Positions 2,825-62,194 of a DNA stretch of 64,000 nt are shown here, piece after piece. The stretch is from Clostridiales bacterium (lineage in GTDB: Bacteria > Bacillota > Clostridia > Christensenellales > JAISNN01), in the NCBI GenBank assembly GCA_031275485.1, contig JAISOS010000033.1, positions 207 to 64,206 on the forward strand, in the 5' to 3' direction. How positions within the stretch are numbered: the first letter of the stretch is position 1; every line of letters begins with the position of its first letter. The notes beneath the pieces are model-generated. The model was not told the DNA's origin. It saw only the letters and a program-made list of their open reading frames with translations, and ran no database searches. The translations under genes were made by a program, and so were the position numbers.

Positions 2825-2887
2825 AAATTATGCGGGGGAAACTTTTTTAAAAAAGGTCCCACTCCGCGCCTCTTTCCAAAAAACTTT
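2825..2887 (-). repeat. REP1 hairpin element
   Basis: aaattatgcgggggaaac..ccgcgcctctttccaaaaaacttt. TAATTT arm faces the sleB start (105 bp). Confidence 0.7.
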
Positions 2888-2940
2888 ACGCTGTATTTAT
2901 TATACAAAGTATAGCCGTTCCGCGCCGGTTTACACAATAC

Positions 2941-3091
2941 TACGCGCGGTTTTTGCGCGGTTCTATACCGTGTTTTTGCGCATGCTTTTATACGTTTTTA
3001 CACGTTTCCACGCTTGCGCTTTTACGTGTTTTTAAGCCGTTTTTACGGTATTTTTAACGCTTTTCCCGCGTTATTTTTTATGCCCTTCTTT
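2941..3091 (+). repeat. T-tract array
   Basis: Runs cgtgtttttgcg, acgtttttacacg, cgtgtttttaag, ccgtttttacgg, tatttttaacg spaced about 10-13 bp. Abuts the spoIIR stop. Confidence 0.65.
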
Positions 3092-3667
3092 CTAATTTGC
3101 GGAGTCGAAAAAGCCGGCGATTATTTCCAATATTTTCGAGCGGTATTTTACAAGCCCGCTACCGTCGTTTTCCGCCGGAATAAAGCAGAGCGGAGGAAAG
3201 GCTATGCACCACCAATTGTCGCCGCGCGCCTCGCCCAATTCCAAAATCAACGCGGTATAGACTCCTTTTTCTAAGACTATATCGCCGTATATGCGCGTGG
3301 GAAATTCTTCGTCCTTTATATTCGCCGCCGCTCCGTAGCCGCGCCCGTCGTTTTTCAAAATTCTATCGGCGAGAGCCGAAAGCTCTCCCAAACGCCCTTC
3401 CAAACGCTCCGCCGCAGCCGCAGCCGAACCGCATTCAGCGAGAACGGGCGTGAGATACGCGACCACTCCGTCGCGCACGGCGTACTTTGCGCCCTGGTCT
3501 TCCGCCGAATTGCTGTTGGCGCGTATATGAATCCGCAAATATTGGGTCACGGGCTTATCCCCCGCTTCCGAATAATCCTCAAAAAACGCGAGCGCGTTGA
3601 AAACCAAAACGGCGGCAAGCGCAATTCCCGCAACGACGACCGCCGTTATGTATCCCTTCTTTTTCAT
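3092..3667 (-). CDS. spoIIR: stage II sporulation protein R
   Basis: LRIHIRANSNSAEDQ..VRD and NWWCIAFPPLC motifs, with an N-terminal TM. Start placed at ATG 3667 (AAGGAG SD). The longer ORF to 3751 reads through a REP1 copy. Confidence 0.8.
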   Translation of the reverse strand: MKKKGYITAVVVAGIALAAVLVFNALAFFEDYSEAGDKPVTQYLRIHIRANSNSAEDQGAKYAVRDGVVAYLTPVLAECGSAAAAAERLEGRLGELSALADRILKNDGRGYGAAANIKDEEFPTRIYGDIVLEKGVYTALILELGEARGDNWWCIAFPPLCFIPAENDGSGLVKYRSKILEIIAGFFDSAN

Positions 3668-3691
3668 AATAAGCTCCTTTTTTGTTTTTTT

Positions 3692-3759
3692 GAATTTACG
3701 CGTAGGAAATCTTTTTGCGAACAAAGAGCTTTCCCGCGCGCCTCTTTCCAAAAACTTCG
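3692..3759 (-). repeat. REP1 hairpin element
   Basis: gaatttacgcgtaggaaatc..cccgcgcgcctctttccaaaaacttcg. TAATTT arm faces the spoIIR start (25 bp). Confidence 0.7.
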
Positions 3760-4024
3760 ATAATGAATATATCTATATAAGCCAATTGAAAAGACATAAA
3801 TCCTTATTCGCGGTATGATTATTGCCGCAAAAAAAAAAATTATACAGGCGCGAAAAATTATGTTTCTTTAAACGTCCGTTAAAAAAATAAAATCACAATT
3901 TAAAATAAAGCGCGGCAAATAAAAAAAGCCTCCTTTAAAAAAAAGAAAGGCAACCGCGAGGCTATCGTAAATCCGTTCTTGGTAAACGGATTTAACAAAT
4001 CCGCGCCTAAATGTATGACGCAGG

Positions 4025-6831: not shown

Positions 6832-6861
6832 ATTTTTACGAATGGGAATAATTTTTTAAAA

Positions 6862-6926
6862 AAAATATGATGGGGAAGCCTTTTGTTCACAAAAGGCTTC
6901 CCCATCACCCCTTTCCAAAAAACCTT
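6862..6926 (-). repeat. REP1 hairpin element
   Basis: Perfect 16-bp stem gatggggaagcctttt/aaaaggcttccccatc with compensatory changes relative to the consensus. TAATTT arm faces the adhE start (147 bp). Confidence 0.75.
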
Positions 6927-7164
6927 AACGTTTCTTACGGTTCCGTTCAAGCGGAACGATACGGACAGGTTCTTTGCTAAACCCGACTAAGCGTTGTCGC
7001 GACGTTTTTTTACTAAACTTCCATAAGCGTTGAGCAGGCGCTTTTTTAGGAAACATCTTTGTAAAAAAAACTTTTACGCGGCAATTACAATTCATAACGA
7101 TTATAACGCACAAAAAAAATTAACCGCAACGCCCTTATTTGAAAATAAAATTAAAAAAAGCGGA

Positions 7165-7228
7165 GGTCTTTTGAAAAGGGGCGCGGGGGAAAACCTTTTC
7201 TCCCAGAAAAGGCTTCCCCCGCGTTAAG
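7165..7228 (+). repeat. REP1 hairpin element
   Basis: ggtcttttgaaaaggggcgcgggggaaaacc..ggcttcccccgcgttaag. TAATTT arm faces the pnp stop (12 bp). Confidence 0.75.
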
Positions 7229-7239
7229 CCTTAACAAAA

Positions 7240-9327
7240 TCAGTTCTTGTTCAATATCGCGACGAGTTTGAGGTCTATTCTGCTTTTTTCGTCTATTTTA
7301 ATGACCTTAACTCTAACGAGGTCGCCTATGTTGATGACGTCCTCGACCTTTTCGACTCTCGTATCGGAGAGCTTGGAGATATGGATCATTCCGTCCTTTC
7401 CCGGAGCGAGTTCCACGAACGCGCCGAATTGCAGAACGCGAACCACCTTTCCCTCGAAAAAGTCGCCGACTTCGGGGTCTTTGACAATGGACAGAACGAT
7501 TTTTTTCGCCTTATTGCAGGTCTCTAAATCATTATGCGCGATAAAGACGAGTCCGTCGTCGGTGATGTCGATTTTGACGCCCGTATCCTCGATAATTTTG
7601 TTTATGACCTTTCCGCCGCTACCGATGACCTCGCGGATTTTATCCGGATCGATATTAAACTTGATTATTTTAGGCGCGTACTCGCTGAGATTCGGGCGCA
7701 CCGCCGGAAGAACCTCCAGCATTTTGCCCAAAATGTGCATTCTTCCCTCTTTCGCCTGCGCGAGAGCGGTACGCAAAATATCCTCGTCTATGCCGCCGAT
7801 TTTAATATCCATCTGAATGGCGGTGATACCGTCCTTAGTTCCCGCGACCTTGAAATCCATATCGCCGAAAAAGTCCTCCAGACCCTGAATATCCGAAAGT
7901 ATGGCTACCCTGCCGTTCTCCTTAATCAGTCCCATAGCGATGCCCGCGACCGGCGCCTTTATAGGCACGCCCGCGTCCATAAGCGCAAGCGTCGAGCCGC
8001 ATACGCTTGCCTGAGAGGTGGAGCCGTTGGAGCTTAAAATCTCCGAAACCGTCCTTATCGCATAAGGAAATTCGGCTTCGGTAGGCAGGACGGGTTCGAG
8101 CGCGCGTTCGGCAAGCGCACCGTGCCCGATTTCGCGTCTGCCCGGACTTCTCAGATTTTTGGCCTCGCCCGTGCTGTACGGAGGCATATTATAGTGATGC
8201 ATATACCGTTTGAAAACGTCGTCGTCTATGCCGTCTAACTTCTGAACCTCGCTTATCGTGCCCAGCGTCGCCGTAGTCAGCGCCTGCGTTTGTCCTCTCG
8301 TGAACACGCCGCTGCCGTGTACTCTCGGCAAAATACCGTGTTCGCACCAAATAGGGCGTATTTCCGTCGCCTTTCTGCCGTCGGGGCGTATGCCTTGATT
8401 GACGATTTTTTCCCTGACCTTGGCTTTTTGGAGAGAATAGAGCGCCTCTCCCGCGTCCTTAACGTGTTCGGGGTCGTTCTCGACAAAATACGCTTCGATT
8501 TTTTCTTTCAAAGCCTTTTCCTTTTCTTGACGCGCCGCCCTGTCGTACTCGTCGTACACATCGTTCAAATCCTTGGCGGCAAGATCCGCGACGCGGAGCT
8601 TGACGTCCTCCGGCGCCTCGTACAGCTTAAATTCCTTTTTAGGCTTCCCCGCCGCCTTGGTTATGTCCTCTATGAACGCGACGATTTTTTTGATTTTCCC
8701 GTGTCCGAACAGTATCGCGCCGAGCATTTCCTCCTCGCTGACCTCGTTCGCGCCCGCTTCGACCATCATAATCGCGCCCTTAGTGCCTGACAGCGAGAGA
8801 TTTAAGCGGCTTTTTTCCCTTTGGGCGTTATCGGGATTGATGACGTATTCGCCGTCCACAAGCCCGACGATAACCGAACCGGTAGGACCGTTGAACGGAA
8901 TATCCGAAATAGAGAGCGCGATAGAGCTGCCTATCATGCCGAATACGTCGGGCGCGATATTCGTATCCACGCTGAGCGCCGTCGCGACGACGGAAATGTC
9001 GTTATAAAGACCGTGCGGAAACAGCGGTCTTATAGGTCTGTCGATCAGCCGCGAAACCAAAATCGCCTTGTCGCTGGCTCTGCCCTCGCGTCTTTTGAAG
9101 CCGCCCGGAATTTTCCCTACGGCGTACATTTTCTCCTCGAAATCCACGGCGAGCGGCAAAAAATCCACTCCGTCGCGCGGTTTGTCGCTTATAGTAACGT
9201 TGGTGAGCACGACCGTGTCGCCGCACCTTATAAGGCACGAGCCGTTAGCCTGTCCGCAGTACGTCCCAATCTCGACGGTCATAGGTCTGCCGCCGACCGT
9301 CGTCTCAAAAATCTGTCTTTCCGTCAT
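7240..9327 (-). CDS. pnp: polyribonucleotide nucleotidyltransferase (PNPase)
   Basis: 695 aa with two RNase PH domains plus C-terminal KH and S1 (GKVVRVLQFGAFVEL). GGGAGG SD. Confidence 0.95.
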   Translation of the reverse strand: MTERQIFETTVGGRPMTVEIGTYCGQANGSCLIRCGDTVVLTNVTISDKPRDGVDFLPLAVDFEEKMYAVGKIPGGFKRREGRASDKAILVSRLIDRPIRPLFPHGLYNDISVVATALSVDTNIAPDVFGMIGSSIALSISDIPFNGPTGSVIVGLVDGEYVINPDNAQREKSRLNLSLSGTKGAIMMVEAGANEVSEEEMLGAILFGHGKIKKIVAFIEDITKAAGKPKKEFKLYEAPEDVKLRVADLAAKDLNDVYDEYDRAARQEKEKALKEKIEAYFVENDPEHVKDAGEALYSLQKAKVREKIVNQGIRPDGRKATEIRPIWCEHGILPRVHGSGVFTRGQTQALTTATLGTISEVQKLDGIDDDVFKRYMHHYNMPPYSTGEAKNLRSPGRREIGHGALAERALEPVLPTEAEFPYAIRTVSEILSSNGSTSQASVCGSTLALMDAGVPIKAPVAGIAMGLIKENGRVAILSDIQGLEDFFGDMDFKVAGTKDGITAIQMDIKIGGIDEDILRTALAQAKEGRMHILGKMLEVLPAVRPNLSEYAPKIIKFNIDPDKIREVIGSGGKVINKIIEDTGVKIDITDDGLVFIAHNDLETCNKAKKIVLSIVKDPEVGDFFEGKVVRVLQFGAFVELAPGKDGMIHISKLSDTRVEKVEDVINIGDLVRVKVIKIDEKSRIDLKLVAILNKN

Positions 9328-9404
9328 TCTTAATTTCCTCCCGCTCCGCCCAAACTACCCGGTTCGAAGCTTTTTTTATTTTTTATTTTTTTGTATTTTT
9401 TGTT

Positions 9405-9430
9405 TGCGCGTCCCTTTCTAAAAAACTTTA
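9405..9430 (-). repeat. REP1 fragment (GGAAAGG arm only)
   Basis: gcgcgtccctttctaaaaaacttt without the hairpin. Lies upstream of the pnp start in the usual orientation. Confidence 0.4.
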
Positions 9431-9735
9431 TAACGCTATTTATAGCGTCTCTCCGAATTCTTTGCGATCTTTTAACGCCGATACTACTATATTACCCGCA
9501 ATACTTTTACGCCTGTATCGCTACGTTTTAACAATACCTTTACTCTGATATTATTCCGATTTCTGCGATATTCAGACGCTTAAAGCATTCAGAAAAACGG
9601 AAACCCTTGCGTTTTTATTCTTTCGTATTTACAATATTTTTACTCTTGCGGTACGCTATCTCTTTTTCGTCGTAATCCCATAAAACTATTTCCGCAAACG
9701 CGTTCGGCGCGACGGCGTTCAAAATTCCCGCCGCC

Positions 9736-10032
9736 TTATATTTCACGCATACGATATTTTTCGGCTTCCTTAGGCGGAACGAATTCCGTAATGCCGGAAA
9801 GACCGCGACCCGCCGAATTAACCAAAGCGTCTATGCGCCCTTACCTCGCTCCTGCCCCGCCGACGCGCCCGTAATCGGATATGCCGAAAGCGTAATCGAT
9901 TCCATCGCCCGTCGTCGCGCTTTCCGGCGCGACGGCGGTATTGCCGCATTCCAAAAACTCCCTTAGCGCACCGCCTATTTCCGAGTCCGCGCCGGTTATG
10001 ACTATTACCTTGTTTCTTAATGCCGTTTCTTA
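9736..10032 (-). pseudogene. short-chain dehydrogenase (SDR) N-terminal remnant
   Basis: Minus-strand translation gives NKVIVITGADSEIGGAL (TGxxxGxG-like), then an in-frame stop, then GRIDALVNSAG in a shifted frame. No start codon, and truncated after about 100 aa. Confidence 0.6.
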
Positions 10033-10118
10033 CGGTTTAGAAAATCGAAGCCGTCGCGCCGCCGCCAATCCTACTTACGGATTAAAACCCGCAGTCGCCC
10101 GACCCTATTTTTTACAAC

Positions 10119-10162
10119 TTAAAAAAGGAGTCCTTTCCCGAATAATTCAGGGAAACGACCCT
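10119..10162 (-). terminator. intrinsic terminator after rpsO
   Basis: Minus-strand gtcgtttccctgaa-ttat-ttcgggaaaggac forms about 12 bp with one mismatch and one bulge, followed by TCCTTTTTT. Confidence 0.45.
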
Positions 10163-10175
10163 TTGGGTATTTTTA

Positions 10176-10889
10176 TTACTTCCTGAGCTTCAGCTCCGCC
10201 AAGATTGCCCTGTAACGCTCAATATCTTTGACCTTCAAATATTTCAAAAGGCTACGTCTCGCGCCGACCATTTTTAAAAGTCCGCGTCTGCTGTGATTGT
10301 CCTTTTTATGCACGGAAAGATGCTCGTTGAGCTTGGCAATCCGTTGCGTCAAAAGCGCGATTTGAATCTCGGGCGAACCCGTGTCGCCCTCGTGTCTCGC
10401 GAACCTCTCGATAACGGCCGTCTTTTTGTTTTCCTTTCTTACGCTTTCGGCGACGACCTCGTCGGCGACGATATTTTCTTCCTTGACGGCGGCTTCGACG
10501 CGTCCCGTCGTTCCGGCGCTCTCTTCCGTCCCGTCGTTTTCCTCCGCTTTCGTCTGTACGTCCGTTCCGCACCCGACTTCCGTTCCCGCAGCGCCGTCTC
10601 CTTCCTCCGCTTTTGCGGCAAGCTTACTTTTAACGACTTTCGTCCGCGCGGCAACTTCGGTATTCTCCTCCGCTTTTCCCGCGCCTCCGCCGCTTGCTTC
10701 GATCTTCACGGTCGTTTCGTCCGTCGTTTCCGTTTGCGTTGCGGTTTCGTTTTTTGCCGCTTCCCCTGGCTCTTCCGCCCCGCCGATTTCCTCCGCTTTT
10801 ACTGCGGCGCCGTCGTTCGTTTCAGCTTTTGCGACCGTTTCGTCCTTCGTTTCCGCCTGCGCGGCGGCTTCGTTGTTTAACTTGTCCAT
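10176..10889 (-). CDS. rpsO: 30S ribosomal protein S15 with long N-terminal low-complexity extension
   Basis: The C-terminal ~88 aa are canonical S15 ([31 protein letters not shown]). ATG 10889 has an AAGGAGG SD. No ATG, GTG or TTG occurs near the canonical S15 start. Confidence 0.75.
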
Positions 10890-11055
10890 AATATTTTTAT
10901 GCCTCCTTAATTTTGGGACACGGCATGCAAATTTTCGCCGCCGTTATTTGCCTTTGCAGCGTTTCCGCGTCTATCAGGAGTAAACTCGCGGAACATCGCA
11001 AAAGGTACGTATATAAGAATACCACATTTAAAAAAAATAGTAAAGCGTTTTCAGC

Positions 11056-11564
11056 TTAAGTAGCGGACAAACGGACGGCTAAATAAAAAAAAGCGGAATA
11101 CGACCCGTTAAGCCCGTTTACCGTTCCGCAAGACTCGCTTTTCCGCATCCCGTAAAGTTTTTTTATCCGATTATAAGAGTCGGCTTTGCCCATACCAAAA
11201 GCCCTGCCGGTTTTTCCCTTTTACCGCTCCGCAAAGCTCACTTTTCCGAATCCCGCGAAGTTTTTTTTATCCAATTGTAAACGTTGGCTTTGCTCATATT
11301 TAAAACTCTGCCGATTTTGCGACCGCTCGCGCCCGCGCAAAACATTTCAATCGCGCTTTGCCGCACTTCGTCGGCGTAAGCGTGCGCCATCGGCTCGGGC
11401 GTGTACCTTCTGCCGCATATCGCGCATTTGCACGCCTGAGTTCCCGAACGGTTCCTCCCTCTGTTTTGTTGCCCCTCCGCCGCCCCGCATCTCGGGCAGA
11501 TTTTAATTAACTCATCCATATCCGAACATTATGGCGTAACGCCGTCCGTTTGTCCGCTCCTTAA
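11056..11564 (-). mobile_element. miniature IS1-family-like element (InsA-type ORF only)
   Basis: Terminal inverted repeats ttaagtagcggacaaacggacggc (11056-11079) and gccgtccgtttgtccgctccttaa (11541-11564) match at 23/24. They enclose only a 93-aa Zn-finger/HTH ORF and no DDE transposase. Confidence 0.6.
11238..11519 (-). CDS. IS1 InsA-like zinc-finger/HTH protein
   Basis: CPRCG..x..CKCAICGRRYT zinc ribbon followed by an HTH (GRKIGRVLNMSKANVYNWIKK). Confidence 0.6.
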   Translation of the reverse strand: MDELIKICPRCGAAEGQQNRGRNRSGTQACKCAICGRRYTPEPMAHAYADEVRQSAIEMFCAGASGRKIGRVLNMSKANVYNWIKKTSRDSEK

Positions 11565-11632
11565 TTTATTAATATTTTAATACGGTTTTTTAATTTAAAT
11601 TACGGTTAAAAAGCGCGTTTCTTTGAACGCGG

Positions 11633-14470: not shown

Positions 14471-14515
14471 AAGCCCGCAAAAGGTTTTTCCCTCGCAAGC
14501 CTCTCCAAAATAATC
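14471..14515 (-). repeat. REP1, degenerate copy
   Basis: aagcccgcaaaaggtttttccctcgcaagcctctccaaaataatc. Faces the HD-gene stop (71 bp). Confidence 0.4.
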
Positions 14516-14580: not shown

Positions 14581-14629
14581 AACTTTTTTTGAAAAGCGGC
14601 GCGAGCGAGAACCTTTTTTTAATAAATTT
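14581..14629 (+). repeat. REP1, truncated copy
   Basis: aactttttttgaaaagcggcgcgagcgagaaccttttttt..aaattt. Faces the start of the next CDS (35 bp). Confidence 0.4.
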
Positions 14630-15803: not shown

Positions 15804-16080
15804 CAATGCGGAGAATAACGCTTTTCCGTCCGGTTTAAACCGATAGAATCATACCGGAAAAGACGGATTCGCGCTTTCGGTTATCCCGCTCGGCGGCTTT
15901 ATATACTAGTTATGAATCGGAACCTCGTAAGACAAGCGTCATCCTTTCCGTCGTAAAACTTGTCTCTTCCGTTTAACGCAACTCTTTACGGCGGCCGTAC
16001 ATTCCGAAAGTTTTACGGCGGAAACTAAACGCCTATCCTCGCTCGATTCCGTTTATAAACGGTTGCAAAATATAACGTCG

Positions 16081-16144
16081 GAGTTTTTGGGAAGAAGGCG
16101 CGGGAGAAAGCCTTTTGTTTAAAAAAGGGTTCCCGCGTAAATTT
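16081..16144 (+). repeat. REP1 hairpin element
   Basis: gagtttttgggaagaaggcgcgggagaaagcc..gggttcccgcgtaaattt. Lies 25 bp before the ATG at 16169. Confidence 0.7.
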
Positions 16145-16168
16145 AAAAAAGGAAAAAAGGAACCGCTT

Positions 16169-17344: not shown

Positions 17345-17360
17345 AAATTTTTATTTTTTA

Positions 17361-17416
17361 TTTTGAAAAAGGGGAGCCTTTTGTAAACAAAAGGCTCCCC
17401 TTTTTCAAAAAACTTT
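17361..17416 (-). repeat. REP1 hairpin element (near-perfect palindrome)
   Basis: tttgaaaaaggggagcctttt-gtaaac-aaaaggctcccctttttcaaa. Lies 17 bp after the stop of the preceding CDS. Confidence 0.7.
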
Positions 17417-17582
17417 ACCTTTTTATTATTACGCAAAGTAACGCCCCTCGCAAGCGCTCCTTTTGTAAAAACGGACAAAGTTACTCTTTCAAAAAATATC
17501 GCCGCATCCTTTCCCATATTTCCCGCAAATACTAAGCCGCGGCGCTCGGCTAAAACGTAATATAACCGTGAAAATCCTTAAT

Positions 17583-17626
17583 AGAAAAGGCGCGGGGAAA
17601 ATCTTTTCTTGCGAAACGCGTAAATT
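17583..17626 (+). repeat. REP1, truncated copy
   Basis: agaaaaggcgcggggaaaatcttttcttgcgaaacgcgtaaatt. Faces the cdaA stop (49 bp). Confidence 0.45.
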
Positions 17627-17674
17627 CCCGTTTCGCTTACAAAAATTTTATCTTTTTTTTACATTAACAAACTC

Positions 17675-20841: not shown

Positions 20842-21108
20842 TTTTCTTTACGGACTTCCCTTCCGTTTTTAAAGTTTTTTATATTGTTTAAATTGTTTTT
20901 CAATGTTTTTTATATCGTTTTTCAGCGTTTTCCGCGCCGTTTTTTCGCTCTTTCTAATAGCGTTTTTCATATCGCTTTTTCACGCTTTTAATACCGTTTT
21001 TCGCATTATTTTTTTATCGCTTTCCGCGTCGTTTAATCAGCTTTTTCATATCGTTTCACGCCGTTTTTTGCCGTTTTTATTCTGCTTCTCAGATTTTTTA
21101 CGCCGTTT
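20842..21108 (+). repeat. T-tract array
   Basis: 16 runs of T5-T7 on the plus strand and no A5+ run. Units such as tcgtttttcag, ccgttttttcg, gcgtttttcat, cgctttttcac are spaced about 10-12 bp. Confidence 0.75.
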
Positions 21109-22092: not shown

Positions 22093-22598
22093 ACGCACGG
22101 TTTTACGCGCGGTTATTATTTTCGCCGCCGTTATGTTTTAGGCTTCCTACGACGCCGCCTATCGGAAGCTTTTTATATATTATACCATTCGAACGTTTTT
22201 TAGTAAAGAAAAATTCGTCCGAATTTATTTTTTTTCGACATTTTGGATGTCGCGGATTTTTAATTTACCGCGCTCCCGCAGCTTGTGCGGAATATTCTTT
22301 TGGCGCGCCCGGGCGTCCCCGCCGTCGCGCCGTTTTAAAGGACGTCGTTCAAATAAACTATAAAACTCTAAAAAAGACAACCGGCGGCGGCACTCCTTAG
22401 CGCGGGGCTTTCCGCTCCGCAAGCCGGATTTTACAATATTTTTCAATCGGATTTAACAGCATTATCTTTCAGAATAAAACTTTTGTAACGCGCAATTCCG
22501 TTCGTTTCAAATTTCGCCGTAATTATTATTAGGGCGCCGTTCACACTTTTTCATAAAAACTCGTCGATCCCCGTTCGCGTAACCCCGCAAAACTTATC

Positions 22599-22667
22599 GA
22601 AGTTTTTTTTGGGGGAAAGAGGCGCCGGGGGAAAGCCTTTCGTTCACAAAAGGTTTCCCGCGCATAT
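22599..22667 (+). repeat. REP1 hairpin element
   Basis: gaagttttttttgggggaaagaggcgccgggggaaagcc..aaaaggtttcccgcgcatat. Lies 23 bp from the kinase stop. Confidence 0.7.
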
Positions 22668-22689
22668 CGTTATGCAAAATAAAAAAAAA

Positions 22690-24577: not shown

Positions 24578-24633
24578 ATTTACCTCTTATTTTTTTGAGA
24601 TTACGCGAAGAGGGGGATTCTCTTATTTTTTTC

Positions 24634-24699
24634 AAAATTACGCGGCGGAAACCTTTTGTAAACAAAAGGTTCTCCCCCGCGCCCATTTCCAAAAACTCC
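24634..24699 (-). repeat. REP1 hairpin element
   Basis: aaaattacgcggcggaaacctttt-gtaaac-aaaaggttctcccccgcgcccatttccaaaaactcc. Faces the regulator start (57 bp). An extra TAATC-arm fragment lies at 24596-24632. Confidence 0.7.
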
Positions 24700-24878
24700 G
24701 GCGTATTTTTACGACCCTATTTAAACCGTATAATAAGGATATTATATCACGGCAAACGAAAATTTGCAATAAAAATCGGAATGAAATGTCGGAACGCCTA
24801 TATACAATAGACGAAAACGCCGGATTTTCGGGGCTTGCGAGACATTTTTTGCGTTTATCCGTTTATATATAAATGATA

Positions 24879-27530: not shown

Positions 27531-27624
27531 GCCTAATAATAATATATATTAATTTCGGAAATTCGCGGGCAAAAGGCTTCCCCCCCACACACACATAATC
27601 CCAATACCTGTACCCGTCTCTTTT

Positions 27625-38582: not shown

Positions 38583-38602
38583 ATTTCCTCCCGTCCTTTT
38601 TT

Positions 38603-38666: not shown

Positions 38667-39040
38667 AAGCAATTTATGCCGTCACAATACAAAGTTCTTT
38701 TTTCAAAAACTTTGTGTAATTTACTCCGTATACAAAGTTTTTTTCTTAAAAAACCTTTGGCGGTATATCGGATTATTCGGAATTACCTCTTCTTTTAGCA
38801 CCGATACGGTGTTTCCCAAAAAACTTTCGACGGTATGCCTTCACCACGTAAAGCCGATTGAAGTTTGTATTCACGGTAGAAAAGGCGGGGCTTGCGAAAG
38901 ATTTTTCAGCCGATAAGGCCTTGTTTTTTGAAATTACGGCAAGTAAGCCCCGCTTGGTCGGGCATGAACGAACCGTTAAAGACCGCCGTCCACAACTATG
39001 CGTATCGGCGCTTTAAGCCTATTCCGGACGATAAATACGT

Positions 39041-39110
39041 CGGGTTTTTTTGAAAAGAGGCGCGGGTGGAAAACCCTTGCGTTAACAAAAGATTTTCCCC
39101 GCGCAACCCT
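39041..39110 (+). repeat. REP1 hairpin element
   Basis: cgggtttttttgaaaagaggcgcgggtggaaaacc..gattttccccgcgcaaccct. Lies 14 bp from the gcvH stop. Confidence 0.7.
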
Positions 39111-39123
39111 CAAAAAAGTAAAA

Positions 39124-40885: not shown

Positions 40886-40909
40886 AATTTTCCTTTTTAG
40901 AGAGTGAAA

Positions 40910-40975
40910 GTATTATGCGGGGGAAATCTTTCGTGAATAAAAAATTTTCGTCCGCTCCCCTTTCTCAAAAACTCC
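40910..40975 (-). repeat. REP1 hairpin element (diverged)
   Basis: gtattatgcgggggaaatc..cgtccgctcccctttctcaaaaactcc. Lies 25 bp upstream of the gcvT ATG. Confidence 0.6.
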
Positions 40976-41050
40976 GACGTTTTACAGACTCGTCTAAACC
41001 GGACGCCGCAGCCGAATTTTTTTCAATTAATATTACTATAACATTCCGAT

Positions 41051-41878: not shown

Positions 41879-42221
41879 ATCGATATTGTATTAAATTCCG
41901 AGGAAAATGTCAAACGATAACGAGCGGTATTCGGCTAAGGATTGCGGTTGCAAGTTTACGTCGGCAAGGTCGCCGGACAAAGCCACGGAAAGACAAACTG
42001 CCGGCGGTTCGGCCATACTCGCGCGGCTTATATTTTCGGACAATCGCCCGACCGTATCGGAGTTCCGCCCAAAGCGGCGCCCGATAATCTTTCAATACTA
42101 ATATCCCTTAATTTGCGTCTATAAGTTTTTTGCAATTTTTGCAATATAATTATTTGCGGGAAAACTTTCGCCGGAAAGACGTTCGGGCTTTTATCGCATT
42201 TGAAATGTTTTTCTTTATATT

Positions 42222-42290
42222 AAAGTTTTTCGGAAGAGGACGCGGATGAAACCTTTTGCGAACAAAAGGTCTCATCTCCCGCATAATTTT
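42222..42290 (+). repeat. REP1 hairpin element
   Basis: aaagtttttcggaagaggacgcggatgaaacctttt-gcgaac-aaaaggtctcatctcccgcataatttt. Lies 18 bp from the pyrF stop. Confidence 0.65.
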
Positions 42291-42307
42291 CAAAAAGAAA
42301 AACTCTT

Positions 42308-44672: not shown

Positions 44673-45059
44673 AATTGTTTCCTTTATTTTTTCATATTGA
44701 TTTCACTATTTTTTATATCGTTTCCGCTTATTTTTTTACGCCTTCCATTACATAAACCGTCGTTTTTCAGTATTTTTTACCCTATACAAGCCGTATAAAA
44801 CCTTCTTTTTCAGTGTTTTTTCGCGATATAAAATCTTTCGTTTTACGCGCCTTTTGCAAAGCCGAAACTCCTTGTTTTCCGTATTTTTTACATAGCTTGA
44901 ATCATAATTTTTCGCGCTTTTTGCGGTATGAAAAACGCGGCTTTTTTGCGCTTTTGCGACACATAAACCATTGTTTTTTCACTTTTTGCGGCATAAATCC
45001 GTCGTTTTTCTTACGTTTTTGCGCGGCGGCGCGCCGTACCTCCTCTTTCGCGCTCCCGC
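44673..45059 (+). repeat. T-tract array (pyrB-pyrC spacer)
   Basis: 387-bp spacer with many T5-T7 runs (cgtcgtttttcag, cttctttttcagtgttttttcgcg, cggcttttttgcgcttttgcg, ccattgttttttcactttttgcgg). Confidence 0.65.
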
Positions 45060-46660: not shown

Positions 46661-46767
46661 AATTTTGCCCTCCATATACTTTTATCATCCTCTCCCCCGA
46701 CGAAAGCGGCGCGGCTCGCGCTTTTATTTCCGTCCGCAATTTACCATTTAAGGTCGTTGTTTTATAT

Positions 46768-46802
46768 AAAAAAATCCCGTCTCTATTTTCAGAACGACGG
46801 GA
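46768..46802 (-). terminator. attenuator-type intrinsic terminator in the pyrR leader
   Basis: Minus-strand tcccgtc-N14-gacggga followed by TTTTTTT, about 100 nt upstream of the pyrR start. Confidence 0.45.
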
Positions 46803-47092
46803 AATTGACAAATTTGATTCTAAAACTAGCGTGCAGAACCCCGCATAACGGCAATTTGATACCGTTAGCCACACCCCGCTCCACGGCGCTTCCGCGCCGC
46901 AAGCGTCAAACGCGCCCGTCTTTTGTAATATCTTGCCGGTCTCGCCGTACCGTTTTTAAAGATATTTCTATTAGTGAGATTATATCACGGCGCGGCTGCA
47001 AAGTCAAGTGTTTTATTAGCTAAAATAAAAACTTTTAAAGGAGTAAATTATGCGATATGTTTTTTTAATCTCCAAAAACTATATTCGCGGTT

Positions 47093-50334: not shown

Positions 50335-52557
50335 CTAAAAAATCAAGCTAAACAGCCTGTATCCGGCAAACGCGGCGAGCCATGCTATGGTCAACTGATA
50401 AGCTACGGCGGCGGCGAAATATTTATTCGATTGCATTTCCTTTTTTTGTGTTGCCAGCGCGGCGACGCACGGCGTATACAACAGCGTAAAAATCAAAAAC
50501 GAACACGCCGACGCAACCGAGAACGCGTCGTTCAGGGCGGAGGGATTCAACGATGGTTTAAAGAGGATCTCTAATGTTCCCGCGACCGCCTCCTTTGCGG
50601 TAACGCCCGCGAGCAAAGCCGTGACGGCGCGCCAATCGCCGAAGCCTAACGGGCGGAAAATAAAGACCGCCGCCTTTCCGATATGCGCCAATATGCTCTC
50701 GTCGGCGTTCGCCGCCGCACTCAACGCGGGTGTGAAATTTTGCATAATCCAGACTGCGGCGGAGGCCGCCGCGATGACCGTTCCGGCTTTCAGGACAAAC
50801 TCCTTCAGCCGTTCGCCTACGCTCAATCCCATATTTTTCAGCGAGGGCAAGCGGTACTCGGGTAATTCCATAATGAAACCGGCTTGCGCGTCCTTAGTTA
50901 TGAATTTTTTTATAAGCAGAGCGGCGAGCGCGGCGGCTACGCCGAGTATGTAGAGCAAAAAAATTACTGCCGGCGCGTGATTCGGAAAAAACGCGTCCGC
51001 TATCACGGCGTATACGGGCAAACGCGCCCCACACGACATAAAGGGCACGACCGCCATGGTCAGTTTCCGCTGTCCGTCGTTTTCAAGCGCGCGCGCGGCG
51101 ACAAGCGCGGGCACACTGCAACCGAAGCCCATCAACATGGGTATTACCGATCTGCCGGACAGCCCGAATTTTCTCAGAATTTTGTCGAATATGAACGCCG
51201 CGCGCGCCATATATCCCGAATCCTCCAAAAGGGAGAGCGCGACGAATAGCAGCGCGATTTCAGGCAGAAAGCCGAGCGCCGCGCCCACGCCCGGGAGTAC
51301 GCCCTCGCAAATCAAGCGATACAAAAAATCGCTTACGCCGATACGCGGCAGCAGGGACGCCGCCGCGCCGGTTACGAAACGCCCGTAGAGCCGGTCGAAC
51401 GCAGCCTTGAGCGTCTGCCCCGGCGCGCCGAACGCGAAGAAAAACACCGCGAGCATTATGCCGAAAAAAATCGGAACGGCAAGGAATTTATGCGTAAAAA
51501 GCGCGTCCGGATTTAGCCGCCGCACGCAAACGCCGGCTTTGCCGTTTACGTTTTTTCCGCTTTTTTTATTACATTCCGCATCGGCGTATTTACTGCCTAT
51601 CTCAGCGTTTCCTCCGTATTCGCGCGCGTTTTTTTTTCTCTCTTTGCCGTCGCGGAACGTCCGCACTTCGCTTAGGAGCGATTCGATAAAGAGATATTTC
51701 TGATTCGCCGCGCACATATCCAAAGGCTGTCCTATACCTTTGGCGTACCGCTCGGCGCGCGTCGTAACTGCGTACAGCCGCGCCTTTTCATCAATCAAGC
51801 CGCATTCGCCCGTGTCAAAAAGCCTTAACGCCTCGTAACGCGGAAAGGCTTTTTCGCCGCGAAAAAGCCTTTCCGCATCCGAAATGATCTCCTCAAATTC
51901 GGCGGTATAGAAGCGCGGATTTTCCGTTGTTTTAGGGTCGTAAAAACGCGGATTTTCTTCACCGATTTTCATCGTTCCGGAGCCGTGAAAACATGGATTT
52001 TCCGCCGTACCGCGCGCTATGCCCAAAAGCCTTTTCATACCCGTTCCCTTTGCCGCCGAAATCGGCGCGACGGGTATGCCCAGTCCGTCGGACAGTTTAG
52101 AAAAATCGATAAAAATTCCGCGCTTTTCCAAAACGTCCGCCATATTGACGGCGACTATAACGGGCTTGCCCGTCTCTATTAGTTGCAAGGTCAAATAGAG
52201 TCCGCGCTCGATATTCACTCCGTCTATTATATTAATCACGGCGCGGCACTCGTCGGAAAGAATAAAATCCCTGGAAATATTCTCCTCCTGAGTATAAGCG
52301 TAAAGCGAGTACAATCCCGGCAGGTCGGTGATTAAAAGCCCCTTTCCTCCTTCGCCCTTGGGCGAGCCCGTTCGCTTTTCTACCGTTACGCCCGGCCAGT
52401 TTCCGACATATCGATTCTCGCCCGTCAGCGCGTTAAAAAACGAGGTTTTTCCCGAATTCGGATTACCCGCCAACGCAAAATTGAAAGGCGGCGTTTTTTC
52501 CGAATTCGGATTGCCAGACGGCGCGGAATCAAAAAAAAACCGTAAAATTTTTTTCAT
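50335..52557 (-). CDS. feoB: ferrous iron transporter FeoB
   Basis: G-domain (AGNPNSGKTSFFNALTG, DLPGLYSL) plus a polytopic permease domain. N-terminal duplication and an internal insert. Confidence 0.9.
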   Translation of the reverse strand: MKKILRFFFDSAPSGNPNSEKTPPFNFALAGNPNSGKTSFFNALTGENRYVGNWPGVTVEKRTGSPKGEGGKGLLITDLPGLYSLYAYTQEENISRDFILSDECRAVINIIDGVNIERGLYLTLQLIETGKPVIVAVNMADVLEKRGIFIDFSKLSDGLGIPVAPISAAKGTGMKRLLGIARGTAENPCFHGSGTMKIGEENPRFYDPKTTENPRFYTAEFEEIISDAERLFRGEKAFPRYEALRLFDTGECGLIDEKARLYAVTTRAERYAKGIGQPLDMCAANQKYLFIESLLSEVRTFRDGKERKKNAREYGGNAEIGSKYADAECNKKSGKNVNGKAGVCVRRLNPDALFTHKFLAVPIFFGIMLAVFFFAFGAPGQTLKAAFDRLYGRFVTGAAASLLPRIGVSDFLYRLICEGVLPGVGAALGFLPEIALLFVALSLLEDSGYMARAAFIFDKILRKFGLSGRSVIPMLMGFGCSVPALVAARALENDGQRKLTMAVVPFMSCGARLPVYAVIADAFFPNHAPAVIFLLYILGVAAALAALLIKKFITKDAQAGFIMELPEYRLPSLKNMGLSVGERLKEFVLKAGTVIAAASAAVWIMQNFTPALSAAANADESILAHIGKAAVFIFRPLGFGDWRAVTALLAGVTAKEAVAGTLEILFKPSLNPSALNDAFSVASACSFLIFTLLYTPCVAALATQKKEMQSNKYFAAAVAYQLTIAWLAAFAGYRLFSLIF

Positions 52558-54459: not shown

Positions 54460-54516
54460 TTTTATGCCCTCCTTTTTCCGTGAGATTGAGATTTTTTATT
54501 CTTTTATTCTTTTTTT

Positions 54517-54554
54517 AATTTACGCGGGGGAAAGCCCCCTTCCAAAAGACCTCC
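54517..54554 (-). repeat. REP1, internally deleted copy
   Basis: aatttacgcgggggaaagcccccttccaaaagacctcc. Lies 58 bp upstream of the citrate synthase ATG. Confidence 0.5.
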
Positions 54555-54646
54555 TCATTTAAAACGCGTTCGGTCGGACCGTCCGTAGCGAAAACTAACC
54601 GATATCCCTTTCCGGAAACGGTCGCGCCACAAAAAAGCGGGCAATC

Positions 54647-54713
54647 CATGACGGCGGAGAAAACCTTTTCTGAATAAAAGACTTTCCCCCGCGCCCCTTT
54701 CCAAAAGACCTCC
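54647..54713 (-). repeat. REP1 hairpin element
   Basis: catgacggcggagaaaacc..gactttcccccgcgcccctttccaaaagacctcc. Second copy in the same orientation as 54517. Confidence 0.65.
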
Positions 54714-55314
54714 GTATTTTGTGCATACCGGATAAACTACCCGCAATTTAAGCCGTCGGGATATTCCCTTTCGGGCAAAAAACTTTTAATCAAAGAAGTT
54801 TTTCAAAAATCGAATATCGCGAAAGCAAAAAAGCGTTGCCCGCAATAACAAACCATAATAATAAACGCGAAAAACAACATTACCGTTGCCTAACCTCACA
54901 CACGCGCGAAACAGCGTTTCAAAGGCATACGGACGGGTATAAGCATATTACCCAAGTTAAGCATTTACAACCGACGAACGCTTTATTATGCCCGGCGTTA
55001 TATACCGCCTCGATTATATGCCTACGCCGTCAAAACTTAACGCGGCGCCTACGCATATCCTTACCTTATATCCCTATCGGAAACTTCAAGAGGCTTACTA
55101 AGCCGAAATAAGCGCGCCTTGCCGCCCCGCCGCGCGGAGAACGTCTTCGATCGTTTTATTACCGAAAATTCCCAAAATTCCCGATCAAACGAACTAAACG
55201 AAAAAATACCGCCGAAATAAGCGCGCCTCGCCGCCATGGGAGCGTTTTCGGCAGTTTAAGACATGGAAGCCGCTAAAATTGTAAACGAAAATCCTGTCAA
55301 GTCTTACCTGTACG

Positions 55315-56253: not shown

Positions 56254-56640
56254 TTTTAGATAATTACGGTTTTTCCGTATTTTCTACAACGCTTTTTTCG
56301 CTAAAAACGCCGCTTTTTCACATGTTTTTCGATGAGTTTTTTGGGTAAAATCACCGCTTTACCGCGCGTTTTTTCGATACGCTTTTTAGGCGAATTTACC
56401 GTTTTTTACGTGTTTTTTAATATGTCTTGTCACTAAAACCGCCGCTTTTTTACGTGTTTTTCGATGAGTTTTTTGGGTAAAATCACCGCTTTACCGCGCG
56501 TTTTTCCGATACGTTTTTTAGGCGAATTTACCGTTTTTTACGTGTTTTTACAACGCTTCTGTCGCTAAAGCCGCCGTCTTTTCGCGTTTTTAAATACGTC
56601 CTTTTAGACCAAATCACCGCTTTTCACACATTGAAAATAA
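56254..56640 (+). repeat. 132-bp tandem repeat (2 full and 2 partial units) of T-tract-rich sequence
   Basis: Units start at 56299, 56431 and 56563 (cgctaaaaacgccgctttttcacatgtttttcgatgagttttttgggtaaaatcaccgctttaccgcgcg...). The two full units are nearly identical. Confidence 0.8.
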
Positions 56641-60033: not shown

Positions 60034-60545
60034 AATAAAGTCCCTCTCTTTTTTTCTTTTTTTCACGTCGGCGGCGACGGTTTTTTATTTTTTTTATAAA
60101 AATTCGTTTTTGTTTTTAACGGCGTTTTTTTGTTTTTCGGAGAGATTGCGAATTTTCGCGATAACGCGATAAAAAATAACACCCCGTAAGTCTATTTTAT
60201 TCGCCGCGAAAATCCGACCCCGGGGGGTTATACGAATTCGTCTTTTTGAAATTTATTTATAATTATAACATAAAATTTTAAAAAAAACAAGCAAATTTTT
60301 ATCCGCGGTATACTGGCGCTTTTATACCGGCTAAACTTTTAAATCACACGCCGCGTAATTCGGGAGAAATTTTAAGCCGGTTTCAAATCGGACGGAGATA
60401 CCCGCCTTTTAACGCCGTCACAGCGAAGAACTTTAAAACGCTTTATATTTTAAAGCCGCGATAACTCGGTCTTTTAAATTACGCTCCGTGTAGTTTAAAA
60501 GTTCGTTCGCCATATAACCGTCGTAAAGTTGATTTTTTGTTTTTT

Positions 60546-60614
60546 AAAATCATGCGGGGAAGCCTTTTGTTCACAAAAGGCTTCCCCGCTATCGCCCGTT
60601 TATAAAAAACTTCG
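60546..60614 (-). repeat. REP1 hairpin element
   Basis: aaaatcatgcggggaagcctttt-gttcac-aaaaggcttccccgctatcgcccgtttataaaaaacttcg. The only copy whose TAATTT arm points away from the nearest CDS end. Confidence 0.7.
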
Positions 60615-60660
60615 GCAATATAATTATGCAAATAACGCCCGACGCCGCTTCCGAAAAACT

Positions 60661-62097
60661 TTATAATTTTTTATACGGAAACATCCTTCTAAACGGTTTA
60701 CGAACGTCGCGCCAAGCGCCCGCGCCGTAAACCTTTACGGTTTTTAAATACGGCTCGCCGCGGCACCGAGTGACGTCGATTATAAGGTTGTCGGTCTCGG
60801 TTTCCTCGAATATCGCAATTTTGTTAAAGCCTATGACCGTACCGGAAAACAACTTTTTTTTCATTCCGTCCTTTATCGTCGATATCTCGAATTTTTCCAC
60901 GCGTTGCGAAAAATCCGTGTCCTCGGCTATTCTCGCGCGATCTATCGCTCGGCGGTCGAATCGGAGCGTCAATTCGTATGAATCGGCGGGCTTTTCGGGT
61001 GAAAAGACGCCGCCGCAAAGGAGGTTTTCCGCACCGGAACCGTCCTTTGCCCCGCCGGCGTATTCTGCGGATTTCAACTTAATTTCCAGAGCGTTTTCGC
61101 GCCTTATCCACCCGCCGATTTCCTCCAATCTTTTCACGTCTTTTTTGTGAAAAAGCCCGTTTCTGTCGGGCGGTATATTGAGCAGCAAAAGGCAGTTACC
61201 GCCCGCCGTGCCGTAATAGACGCGCATAAGCTCGTCCGTTTTTTTGACCGCGAAATTTTGCCGCGGATGATAGAACCAGCCGGGTCTTATCGACACGTCC
61301 GCTTCGGCGGGATACCAGATAAATTTGTCAAAGCCGCTCAAAAATTCACGACTGCCCATATCCTCTCTCAAAACGTCCTCGCACCTCTTTAAGGCTTGCG
61401 TTTTTTTGAAGTTTTGTTTGCCGAAATCGAATTCGGGCACGACGTTCCATTCGGACTCTCTCGCCCGCCCCTTTTCGTTGCCCACCCACCTCACGTCCGG
61501 CGCGCAATTTGAAAGAATGATATCGGGCTGATATTTGAGGGCGGTCGCGTAAATCCGCTCGAAATCGTATTCCTGTTCGGGCTTGCCGTCGAGCGCCGCG
61601 CCGCAAGCGCCGTCTATCCACAGCATAAAAATTTTGCCGTACCCCGTCAGCAGCTCCGTCAGCTGCCGTATATAGAAATCCGTATATTTATCGGCGCCGT
61701 AAAGAGGGCAGTTCCTGTCCCACGGCGAGAGATATATCCCGAATTTCAAGCCGTATTTTTCGCACGCCGCGCTAAGCTCCGCGACAACGTCGCCGCCGCC
61801 GTTCTTATACGGCGAGTTTTTTACGCAATGCTCCGTGGTCTCCGTCCGCCAAAGACAAAAGCCGTCGTGATGCTTGGCGGTAAGGACGACTCCCTTCATT
61901 TCCGCAGCCTTTATTGCGCGGCACCATTGCTCCGCGTCGAGCCTTTTCGGATTGAATACGGCGGGATTTTCTCTACCCGTGCCCCATTCTCTGCCCGTGA
62001 AGGTGTTCACCGAAAAATGCACGAACGCGTAAAAGCCGATCTCTTGCGCGAGCTTTTGTCTGCGGTTCGGCGTAACCGACGTATAAATGTCCGACAT
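60661..62097 (-). CDS. GH29 alpha-L-fucosidase
   Basis: FYAFVHFSVNTFTGREWG, TAKHHDGFCLW and LWIDGA motifs. GGAGAAA SD. Confidence 0.9.
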   Translation of the reverse strand: MSDIYTSVTPNRRQKLAQEIGFYAFVHFSVNTFTGREWGTGRENPAVFNPKRLDAEQWCRAIKAAEMKGVVLTAKHHDGFCLWRTETTEHCVKNSPYKNGGGDVVAELSAACEKYGLKFGIYLSPWDRNCPLYGADKYTDFYIRQLTELLTGYGKIFMLWIDGACGAALDGKPEQEYDFERIYATALKYQPDIILSNCAPDVRWVGNEKGRARESEWNVVPEFDFGKQNFKKTQALKRCEDVLREDMGSREFLSGFDKFIWYPAEADVSIRPGWFYHPRQNFAVKKTDELMRVYYGTAGGNCLLLLNIPPDRNGLFHKKDVKRLEEIGGWIRRENALEIKLKSAEYAGGAKDGSGAENLLCGGVFSPEKPADSYELTLRFDRRAIDRARIAEDTDFSQRVEKFEISTIKDGMKKKLFSGTVIGFNKIAIFEETETDNLIIDVTRCRGEPYLKTVKVYGAGAWRDVRKPFRRMFPYKKL

Positions 62098-62129
62098 AAC
62101 ATAATTTCTCCGAATTTTTTTATTTTTTT

Positions 62130-62194
62130 ATTCTACGCGGGGGAAACCTTTCGTGAACAAAAGGTTTCCCCCGCGCCCCTTTCTAAAAAACTTC
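62130..62194 (-). repeat. REP1 hairpin element (near consensus)
   Basis: attctacgcgggggaaaccttt-cgtgaac-aaaaggtttcccccgcgcccctttctaaaaaacttc. Lies 33 bp upstream of the fucosidase ATG. Confidence 0.8.

Follow-up and report, generated by a model that had tools for sequence, protein, structure and literature searches.

A dense family of polar hairpin repeats at transcription-unit borders in an uncultured Clostridiales genome

We analyzed a 64,000-nt stretch of the genome of a Clostridiales bacterium (contig JAISOS010000033.1; hereafter "the window", i.e., 64 kb of one genome, to which all copy counts refer) and found a dense family of hairpin repeats, here termed REP1. Its copies are restricted to intergenic regions and fixed at the borders of transcription units, with one end (the tail) abutting a gene and the other (the head) facing into a long unique spacer. 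The hairpin is maintained by compensatory substitution, and in another lineage of Clostridia such hairpins persist at orthologous sites. The interpretation that we favor, with a probability of roughly 0.5, is that REP1 represents an old palindrome family, comparable to repetitive extragenic palindromic (REP) sequences and bacterial interspersed mosaic elements (BIMEs) or to miniature inverted-repeat transposable elements (MITEs), and that the surviving copies were retained at transcription-unit borders as RNA hairpins. Under this interpretation, the copies would be transcribed and act at the RNA level, and the family would once have been mobile.

A profile hidden Markov model (HMM) built from 10 seed copies and run against the window with nhmmer identified 24 full-length and 7 partial copies, i.e., 31 in total, between positions 2815 and 62197, with 14 on the + strand and 17 on the − strand (Table 1). 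An earlier note on this DNA, made from the letters alone, had counted 24 full and 5 truncated copies, which was essentially right. The loci were also grouped together by a repeat finder and were recovered, at 24–98 bits, by a covariance model (CM) of six copies with an 18-pair stem specified by hand, scanned with filters off. In addition, a 28-nt core pattern allowing ≤3 mismatches matched eight times in the window and not once in 100 shuffles. The earlier note had described all copies as intergenic and had proposed a model scan contrasting intergenic with genic counts; within the window, the bias is strong, as all 31 copies are intergenic while 74.7% of the sequence is coding (p ~ 3e-19). The note's further statement that nearly every intergenic region carries a repeat was overstated, since REP1 is present in 21 of 40, about half. 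This corresponds to one copy per 2 kb and ~12% of the non-coding DNA.

Individual copies are imperfect palindromes of 75–95 bp and follow the order A-rich box, CGTCGRAG, T6, GGAAAGGGG, 17–19-bp GC-clamped hairpin, TAATTT, and A6. The family and hairpin first described by eye are real, but the ~65-bp consensus proposed for them was too short at both ends: the conserved unit reaches ~20 nt further 5′, where an A-rich box is followed by CGTCGRAG, and an A-run follows TAATTT. We retained the orientation of that consensus, in which the T-run and GGAAAGGGG form the head, and TAATTT and the A-run form the tail. The T-run and A-run can pair with each other, which would close the whole 70–80-nt unit as one long irregular hairpin. 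The best-conserved part, both in the window and across hosts, is the non-palindromic arms T6-GGAAAGGGG-CGCG. Translation of the hairpin (e.g., TTT GTT CAC AAA AGG TTT CCC, read as FVHKRFP) accounts for the peptides that recur in the list of open reading frames (ORFs), as had been suspected. Separately, a hairpin resembling REP1 but devoid of the arms (TGCGGAAAGGCTTTTTCGCGGCGAAAAAGCCTTTCCGCG) lies inside the feoB coding sequence (51838–51877; CM E=0.12).

REP1 copies are strongly polar. In 29 of 31 copies, it is the tail that points to the closer of the two gene boundaries (binomial p=2.3e-7), the two exceptions being 60537–60616 and the fragment 27562–27585. All copies adjacent to a gene start are in the forward orientation, and in 7 of the 12 start-proximal copies the end of the hairpin lies 28–39 nt from the start codon, with a Shine-Dalgarno (SD) sequence in between. 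Conversely, all 10 full stop-adjacent copies are reversed relative to the gene that they follow, with the tail at or beside the stop codon and 17–32 nt between stop codon and hairpin in every case (10/10). The head side faces 70–780 nt of unique sequence. In nine intergenic regions, with co-directional, divergent, or convergent flanking genes, two copies are arranged head-to-head around a centre of 71–379 nt, and one such pair is ≤150 nt apart; the pair in the convergent spacer is formed by copies 17350–17419 and 17585–17627. The centres showed no significant similarity to one another, which ruled them out as a repeat family of their own. Nine transcription units (adhE, pnp, aminotransferase, the response regulator–histidine kinase pair, M14 peptidase, tadA, gcvPA, gcvT-gcvH, and gltA) lie between two inverted copies whose tails point inward. 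Copies also occur inside the gcv operon and after pyrF, as REPs do in operons. One possible reason for this polarity is that the opposite orientation would set the anti-SD-like CCCCUUUCC beside the ribosome-binding site. An identity as integron attC sites was dropped because REP1 flanks housekeeping genes, with copies in alternating orientation. Two small hairpin and T-run motifs at 3036–3083 (+) are directed from outside towards the 3′ end of spoIIR. The second of them (…TTTTCCCGCGTTATTTTTT) looks like a REP1 tail in decay, possibly a remnant of the partner that copy 2815–2890 has lost.

The REP1 hairpins are typically stable, and their pairing is preserved despite changes in sequence. Among 12 copies that were folded, eight were very stable, with a minimum free energy (MFE) of −23.8 to −40.8 kcal/mol and z-scores of −3.6 to −7.6. 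The stem variants quoted in the earlier note, namely gatggggaagcc/ggcttccccatc at 6862, gcgcgcggtaaac/gtttaccgcgcgc at 38603, and ggggagcc/ggctcccc at 17361, are all present, and its reading of these as compensatory change was upheld against shuffled controls. RNAalifold returned no structure from MAFFT alignments of REP1 because MAFFT misaligned the stems, and we therefore used a hand-specified structure followed by realignment to the covariance model. On this alignment, counted on one strand per locus, 23 copies and 18 pairs yield 414 cells: 305 hold the consensus pair, 31 have changed on both sides and remain paired, 10 have changed on both sides and are broken, 18 have changed on one side to a wobble, 44 have changed on one side and lost the pair, and 6 are gaps. 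When the 3′ letters were shuffled, only 9.3±2.5 compensated cells were obtained and none of 2000 shuffles reached the observed 31, while paired cells numbered 354 against 317.8±3.7, with the caveat that the alignment was itself fitted to the structure. In the full alignment, double changes were found at 18 of 18 pairs and compensated cells numbered 93 versus 24.7±3.9, with none of 500 shuffles as high on any measure. As a control, sliding the partners against each other dropped pairing to 44–68%. A second mini-hairpin just upstream of the T-run was convincing by eye but was rejected, as its mean stem score of 3.65 compares with 3.41±0.28 in shuffles. In copies 6852–6929, 60537–60616, and 42219–42299, the loop is inverted with respect to the arms (GTGAAC or GCGAAC for GTTCAC or GTTCGC), which suggests a flip-flop inversion across the stem.

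Palindrome-preserving DNA processes such as gene conversion or hairpin-templated repair could generate the same pattern of compensation without selection on RNA. Alternatively, REP1 may be a DNA-level element, i.e., a binding or cleavage site for a nucleoid, topoisomerase, or IHF-like protein, or a cruciform acting as a topological insulator at transcription-unit borders. BIMEs are known as sites for gyrase and IHF, the non-palindromic arms are better conserved than any other part of the unit, G·T and A·C mismatches are equal in number on both strands overall, and polarity with respect to transcription units would fit a supercoiling-insulator role. Still, a 17–19-bp stem whose sequence varies under compensation points more to a folded single strand than to a site bound as a duplex, and we consider a DNA-level role very unlikely.

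If REP1 copies are instead RNA hairpins retained at transcription-unit borders, a plausible scenario can be outlined. A hairpin-recognizing mobilization system encoded outside the window would presumably have spread the family in the past. The copies would then most likely be transcribed together with the flanking genes and serve as boundary hairpins at the RNA level. At 3′ ends, the hairpin may block 3′-to-5′ exonucleases or serve as a weak terminator, and may thereby define the mRNA end in an organism with almost no canonical hairpin and U-tract terminators. At 5′ ends, it may act as a leader hairpin following the strong SD-like GGAAAGGGG, in a manner resembling STAB-SD, or as an insulator against read-through. 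We also considered, as a long shot, that in bracketing copies the ~20-nt complementary arms (AAGUUUUUUGGAAAGGGGCGCG and CGCGCCCCUUUCCAAAAAACUU) at the two transcript ends pair with each other, forming an rRNA-like processing stalk or an end-to-end clamp. If true, such a paired-end stalk would amount to a genome-wide excision or protection of mRNAs from read-through transcripts, either by RNase III processing or by protection of both ends.

Several observations weigh against retention as RNA hairpins. Four of the 12 folded copies have decayed (z −0.9 to −2.7). Selection at the RNA level is expected to leave a strand asymmetry between G·U and A·C, yet the counts were 7 versus 14 in the 3′ class, a non-significant trend, and 11 versus 10 in the 5′ class. 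In none of the 10 stop-proximal copies does a U-tract come directly after the hairpin when read in the direction of the upstream gene: in the mRNA sense, CCCCTTTCC stands there instead, making these copies poor intrinsic terminators. At the 5′ side, adhE and yetF have a good promoter downstream of the REP1 copy, and these copies are therefore probably outside the 5′ untranslated region. The polarity itself could derive from the mode of insertion of the element. Finally, the evidence from this genome comes from 64 kb.

Classical terminators are scarce in the window. Searching 150 nt downstream of each gene, we found canonical sense-strand hairpin and T-run terminators after only 2–3 of 39 genes, namely the hypothetical gene at 11633, the fucosidase gene (via copy 60537–60616), and rpsO. 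Two of the 24 full REP1 copies passed the terminator scan: 60537–60616, the one copy to form a hairpin and T-run terminator in the sense of the gene that it follows, and 6852–6929, the only copy to pass between 1 and 20 kb. REP1 matched no Rfam family, with no hit at the gathering score and, at E≤5, only chance matches to miRNA-precursor hairpins. Even at this relaxed threshold, Rfam revealed no glycine riboswitch before gcvT (40886–41050), no PyrR-binding attenuator in the pyr cluster (46676–47092), and no ribosomal leader in the whole window.

These scans also bear on the possibility that REP1 is a promoter or attenuator module, in which forward copies would supply or regulate downstream transcription. 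The tail TAAATT/TAATTT might function as a −10 box with the loop TTCACA as a −35-like element, or the hairpin followed by UAAUUUU might be a shared leader terminator under a common factor. The role of stop-proximal copies would then be to block antisense transcripts or to give rise to them. In seven copies, the 28–39 nt between hairpin and ATG leave no room for a separate downstream promoter, and the tail variant TAAATT, the better match to a −10 box, was found in 5 of 13 start-proximal copies and in none of the 10 stop-proximal ones (p=0.046). The truncated copy 54507–54556, 48 nt before the citrate synthase ATG, retains a head TTGGAA and a tail TAAATT 17 nt apart and resembles a sigma-70 promoter. 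The forward orientation is also the more terminator-like one, with 4–6 T in the 8 nt past the stem in most copies (by eye), and copy 6852–6929 passes the terminator scan. On the other hand, the hexamers are weak (~8/12 matches to consensus), a promoter scan picked up only copy 17350–17419, the flipped loop in three copies destroys the putative −35, and the same sequence is found at gene 3′ ends, pointing into the gene. A −10-like box upstream of the head was only marginally enriched (8/24 copies versus 17%, p=0.04) and is not conserved among orthologues, and we rejected it as a promoter. Together with the lack of any Rfam leader or riboswitch match, these results make a promoter or attenuator module quite unlikely in our view. 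A sigma-54 reading of TTGGAAAGGGGCGC was rejected by inspection because of the wrong GG-to-GC spacing.

Next, we evaluated the host, age, and spread of REP1. The window encodes YpeB, a SleB-like protein, SpoIIR, AdhE, PNPase, SMC, FtsY, glycine-cleavage genes, pyrR-B-C-F, DpaAB, FeoB, citrate synthase, and glycosidases, a gene content that identifies the host as a spore-forming Firmicute. The nearest PNPases, 83–86% identical, are from "Clostridiales" metagenome-assembled genomes (MAGs), and a 74% identical match is labelled Christensenellales. No close genome was found among 185,579 GTDB species representatives, for which the best GcvPB match was 58% identical. Within the window, pairwise identity between REP1 copies averages ~59%, and the copies must be old because no pair exceeds 78%. 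Two copies flanking one gene or one centre resemble each other no more than randomly drawn pairs do (p=0.11–0.46), which ruled out a co-evolution of partner copies.

Outside the window, the family is lineage-restricted. REP1 was absent from relatives with 77–86% identical PNPase, among them those at 85% and 77% whose contigs were scanned, as well as from 80 GTDB species loci chosen by GcvPB similarity, and BLAST returned no matches in plasmid and phage collections. Thirty pattern matches in viral contigs were all due to chance. Among metagenome contigs, however, 116 stretches matched the pattern, of which six, on unrelated contigs of other Clostridia with 48–64% GC, carry true members of the family. 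These six share the head AAAGTTTTTTGRAAAGGGGCGCGGGG and a hairpin, and the tail-to-gene polarity recurs in 6 of 7 assessable cases, e.g., next to secY, where the distance to the stop is 2 nt, and ahead of greA, with ~25 nt to the ATG. Contig L194, one of the six, comes from a MAG lineage of the Clostridiales/Ruminococcaceae type and has a lipoprotein gene between its two secY–adk copies. Relatives of L194 with 92–94% identical SecY have retained hairpins, in diverged form, at both of these positions, behind secY and ahead of adk; in the spacer of the closer relatives, a reverse copy is followed by a centre and then by a forward copy. One stem has changed in a compensatory manner in this lineage (CTGGGG/CCCCAG to CCGGGG/CCCCGG), while the sequence enclosed by the two hairpins is not conserved. 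Where SecY is 84% identical, the secY–adk spacer of the relatives is 11–29 nt long and contains no element. Based on the persistence of hairpins at these orthologous sites, copies of the REP1 type are inherited vertically and, once in place, conserved relative to their surroundings. The patchy distribution of the family would be expected of something once horizontally spread or mobile.

This distribution raises the possibility that REP1 is a selfish foldback or MITE-like unit, composed of two inverted copies with tails outward and a variable centre, that inserted into short spacers in single events. The tails would then abut genes as insertion ends, and the hairpins would be transposase recognition structures with no function for the host. 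Such a unit would account for the nine head-to-head pairs, including the one between convergent genes, a position that calls for no promoter, for the secY–adk site that is empty in the more distant relatives and filled in L194 and its closer ones, for the patchy distribution among relatives, and for a head sequence conserved across hosts of 48–64% GC, as would be a protein recognition site. REP1 also has terminal inverted repeats as in MITEs, since the T-run is complementary to the A-run and the GC clamp to itself. Two other MITE features, near-identical copies and a parent insertion sequence (IS), are missing: the highest identity of 78% leaves no young copies, and the window contains no IS. 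Neither a PF01797-type nor any other transposase was found among the 50 window ORFs scanned, and this rival is likewise at odds with the empty plasmid and phage searches. In addition, the centres share no similarity, the partners at one centre are as unlike as random pairs (p=0.26–0.46), several copies are single, and the hairpins have been kept by compensation long after any transposition. A selfish foldback unit without host function thus strikes us as rather unlikely.

Among known systems, REP-like repeats are best known from Proteobacteria, and proposed roles for REP/BIME elements include mRNA 3′ stabilization, termination, and translation control. REP1 resembles REP, BIME, and REPIN elements (E. 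coli PU/REP, Pseudomonas REPINs, and Stenotrophomonas SMAG) in its short GC-rich hairpins, high copy number, strictly extragenic location, frequent inverted doublets, placement after genes and between genes of one operon, and lineage-specific sequence. It differs in its longer stem, its conserved non-palindromic arms, its strict polarity towards the gene, its Firmicute host, and its doublets, which are 71–379 nt apart, whereas REP doublets are ≤150 nt apart and form one long hairpin. Unlike E. coli REPs, REP1 is also found immediately ahead of start codons and in promoter regions between divergent genes. Canonical REPs carry a GT[AG]G guide tetranucleotide 0–2 nt 5′ of the hairpin foot (PMC6006769). 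No such guide was found at the foot of the REP1 hairpin in any of 23 copies on either strand, and no REP-associated tyrosine transposase (RAYT) is encoded in the window; a link to RAYTs is therefore not established. The way in which REP1 appears to work would place it with REP/BIME elements, even though it fails this one defining feature of canonical RAYT-associated REPs.

Other repeat families and regulatory hairpins offer partial parallels. Correia elements of Neisseria (CREE/NEMIS) and ERIC/IRU elements of enterobacteria are, like REP1, imperfect palindromes that fold into long hairpins; they measure ~100–150 bp, are transcribed with neighboring genes, and can carry promoter or terminator activity. 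Their terminal inverted repeats are defined, as are their target-site duplications (TA for Correia), whereas REP1 has fuzzy boundaries and A/T-rich flanks, and no sequence similarity links them to REP1. We know of no report of gene-end polarity for Correia or ERIC/IRU. The combination of an SD-like purine tract lacking a start codon (GGAAAGGGG) and a stable hairpin in a presumed 5′ leader recalls Firmicute 5′ mRNA stabilizers (STAB-SD of Bacillus thuringiensis cry3A, and the ermC and aprE leader stem-loops), although these are single-gene features and REP1 is a dispersed repeat family. Similarly, REP1 shares with intrinsic (Rho-independent) terminators a GC-rich hairpin soon past the stop codon, followed by UAAUUUU in the forward orientation, but when read in the sense of the upstream gene, CCCCUUUCC takes the place of a U-tract after the stem. 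In the literature searched, we found no description of the REP1 motif, nor of a comparable family in Christensenellales-type Clostridia.

REP1 is thus a new REP-like family that probably marks and protects mRNA ends, and not a new kind of genetic system. It stands out through its very high density, its near-invariant gene-end polarity, seen again in other uncultured Clostridia, and the small number of classical terminators in the window, and would be a useful natural system to understand how dispersed palindromes join transcription-unit architecture. On a practical level, REP1 gives rise to false N-terminal extensions of ORFs when genes are called in these MAGs, and it breaks short-read assemblies. 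For instance, Logan contig L001 (SRR14710916), assembled independently from the same organism and identical to window positions 6874–11270, ends exactly inside the hairpin of copy 6852–6929.

Table 1 REP1 copies in the window, with gene context and model scores.
Position	Strand	Copy type and context	Scores
2815–2890	−	Full, start-proximal (sleB-like); hairpin end 111 nt before ATG	CM 52.4 bits; nhmmer E=8.6e-13
3683–3762	−	Full, start-proximal (spoIIR); hairpin end 32 nt before ATG, AAGGAG between	CM 55.6 bits
4021–4099	+	Full, stop-proximal (adhE), reverse relative to gene; hairpin start 26 nt past stop	CM 45.2 bits
6852–6929	−	Full, 147 nt before adhE start; flipped loop GTGAAC	CM 97.6 bits; MFE −40.8 kcal/mol, z=−7.6
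7160–7240	+	Full, stop-proximal (pnp); tail directly after TGA, hairpin start 17 nt after TGA	CM 53.0 bits
9385–9432	−	Partial, head only, 79 nt upstream of pnp start	nhmmer E=0.0064; CM 25.3 bits, E=0.02
14477–14513	−	Partial, head and 5′ arm; tail side towards stop of HD-domain gene	nhmmer E=0.012
14584–14625	+	Partial, head and 5′ arm, 38 nt before metC-like start; head-to-head with 14477–14513	nhmmer E=1.3e-6
16077–16153	+	Full, start-proximal (aminotransferase); hairpin end ~28 nt before ATG	CM 54.9 bits
17350–17419	−	Short variant without CGCG clamp, stop-proximal (aminotransferase); hairpin start 22 nt past stop	CM 51.9 bits
17585–17627	+	Partial, degenerate; tail 47 nt from stop of DAC-domain gene	nhmmer E=2e-4
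22596–22680	+	Full, stop-proximal (histidine kinase); hairpin start 26 nt past stop	CM 41.5 bits
24625–24703	−	Full, start-proximal (response regulator), 64 nt before ATG	CM 85.5 bits
24875–24953	+	Full, start-proximal (yetF-like), 89 nt before ATG; head-to-head with 24625–24703, divergent spacer	CM 54 bits
27562–27585	−	Partial, stem fragment, 39 nt past smc stop; polarity exception	nhmmer E=0.0035
31617–31690	+	Diverged full, start-proximal (M14 peptidase), 37 nt before ATG	nhmmer E=2.1e-4; CM 23.9 bits, E=0.037
32909–32989	−	Full, stop-proximal (M14 peptidase); hairpin start 30 nt past stop	CM 43.4 bits
33354–33433	+	Full, start-proximal (tadA-like deaminase), 28 nt before ATG	CM 65.5 bits
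33906–33983	−	Full, stop-proximal (tadA-like); hairpin start 32 nt past stop	CM 88.1 bits
34187–34217	+	Partial, 3′ arm and tail, 45 nt before start of next gene	nhmmer E=0.019
37168–37245	+	Decayed full, between gcvPA and gcvPB; hairpin start 19 nt past gcvPA stop	CM 47.2 bits; z=−1.3
38597–38669	−	Full, start-proximal (gcvPA), 31 nt before ATG; stem variant GCGCGCGGTAAAC	CM 54.7 bits; z=−5.3
39039–39119	+	Full, stop-proximal (gcvH); hairpin start 21 nt past stop	CM 41.4 bits
40900–40978	−	Full, start-proximal (gcvT), 31 nt before ATG	CM 44.3 bits
42219–42299	+	Full, stop-proximal (pyrF), flipped loop; hairpin start 25 nt past stop	CM 77.8 bits
52612–52680	−	Aberrant shortened hairpin, 56 nt before feoB start	nhmmer E=1e-7; CM 35.9 bits
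52987–53064	+	Full, stop-proximal (citrate synthase); hairpin start 23 nt past stop	CM 93.9 bits
54507–54556	−	Truncated, most of hairpin deleted, 48 nt before citrate synthase ATG	nhmmer E=0.022; CM 22.3 bits
54642–54715	−	Full hairpin without tail, 194 nt before citrate synthase ATG	nhmmer E=5.4e-15; CM 35.2 bits
60537–60616	−	Full, head 47 nt past fucosidase stop, co-directional with gene; polarity exception	CM 60.8 bits
62120–62197	−	Full, start-proximal (fucosidase), 33–39 nt before ATG	CM 94.2 bits; z=−7.4

Hairpin families distinct from REP1 were observed in other contigs. The relative with the 85% identical PNPase (L113) has a small palindrome family of its own, CGCGGTATAG(A/T)ACCGCG, at 719–746, 889–915, 3478–3505, 11094–11121, and 11226–11253. 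A rumen-type lineage carries another hairpin family (ACGCGGCTTTCTTTGGAAAGAAAGCCGCGT) in the S10-spc ribosomal protein operon, in the gaps after S14 and L18 (L232: 6830–6870, 8510–8550, and 8680–8720; L235: 6840–6880 and 8520–8560), and these gaps are shorter in a more distant relative (L237).

Within the window, intergenic regions are unusually long for a bacterium (mean 406 nt, n=40; e.g., 9328–10175, 10890–11632, and 54460–55314), including where REP1 is absent. The ribosomal protein S15 gene (10176–10889, −) is called at 237 aa, with the S15 domain covering only residues 156–236, and its N-terminal extension contains ~90-nt direct repeats at a spacing of 123 nt (10666–10755 and 10789–10878). 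The S15 ORFs of relatives are also long, at 152 and 196 aa, and code for tandem repeats (L112, 2174–2632; L113, 4868–5458). Finally, three tandem arrays unrelated to REP1 are found at 56270–56582 (period 44/132 nt, 2.4 to 5.8 copies, between the cmk-like and GH38 genes), at 20864–21024 (period 31–35 nt, upstream of holA), and at 44674–44736 (period 22 nt, between pyrC and pyrB).

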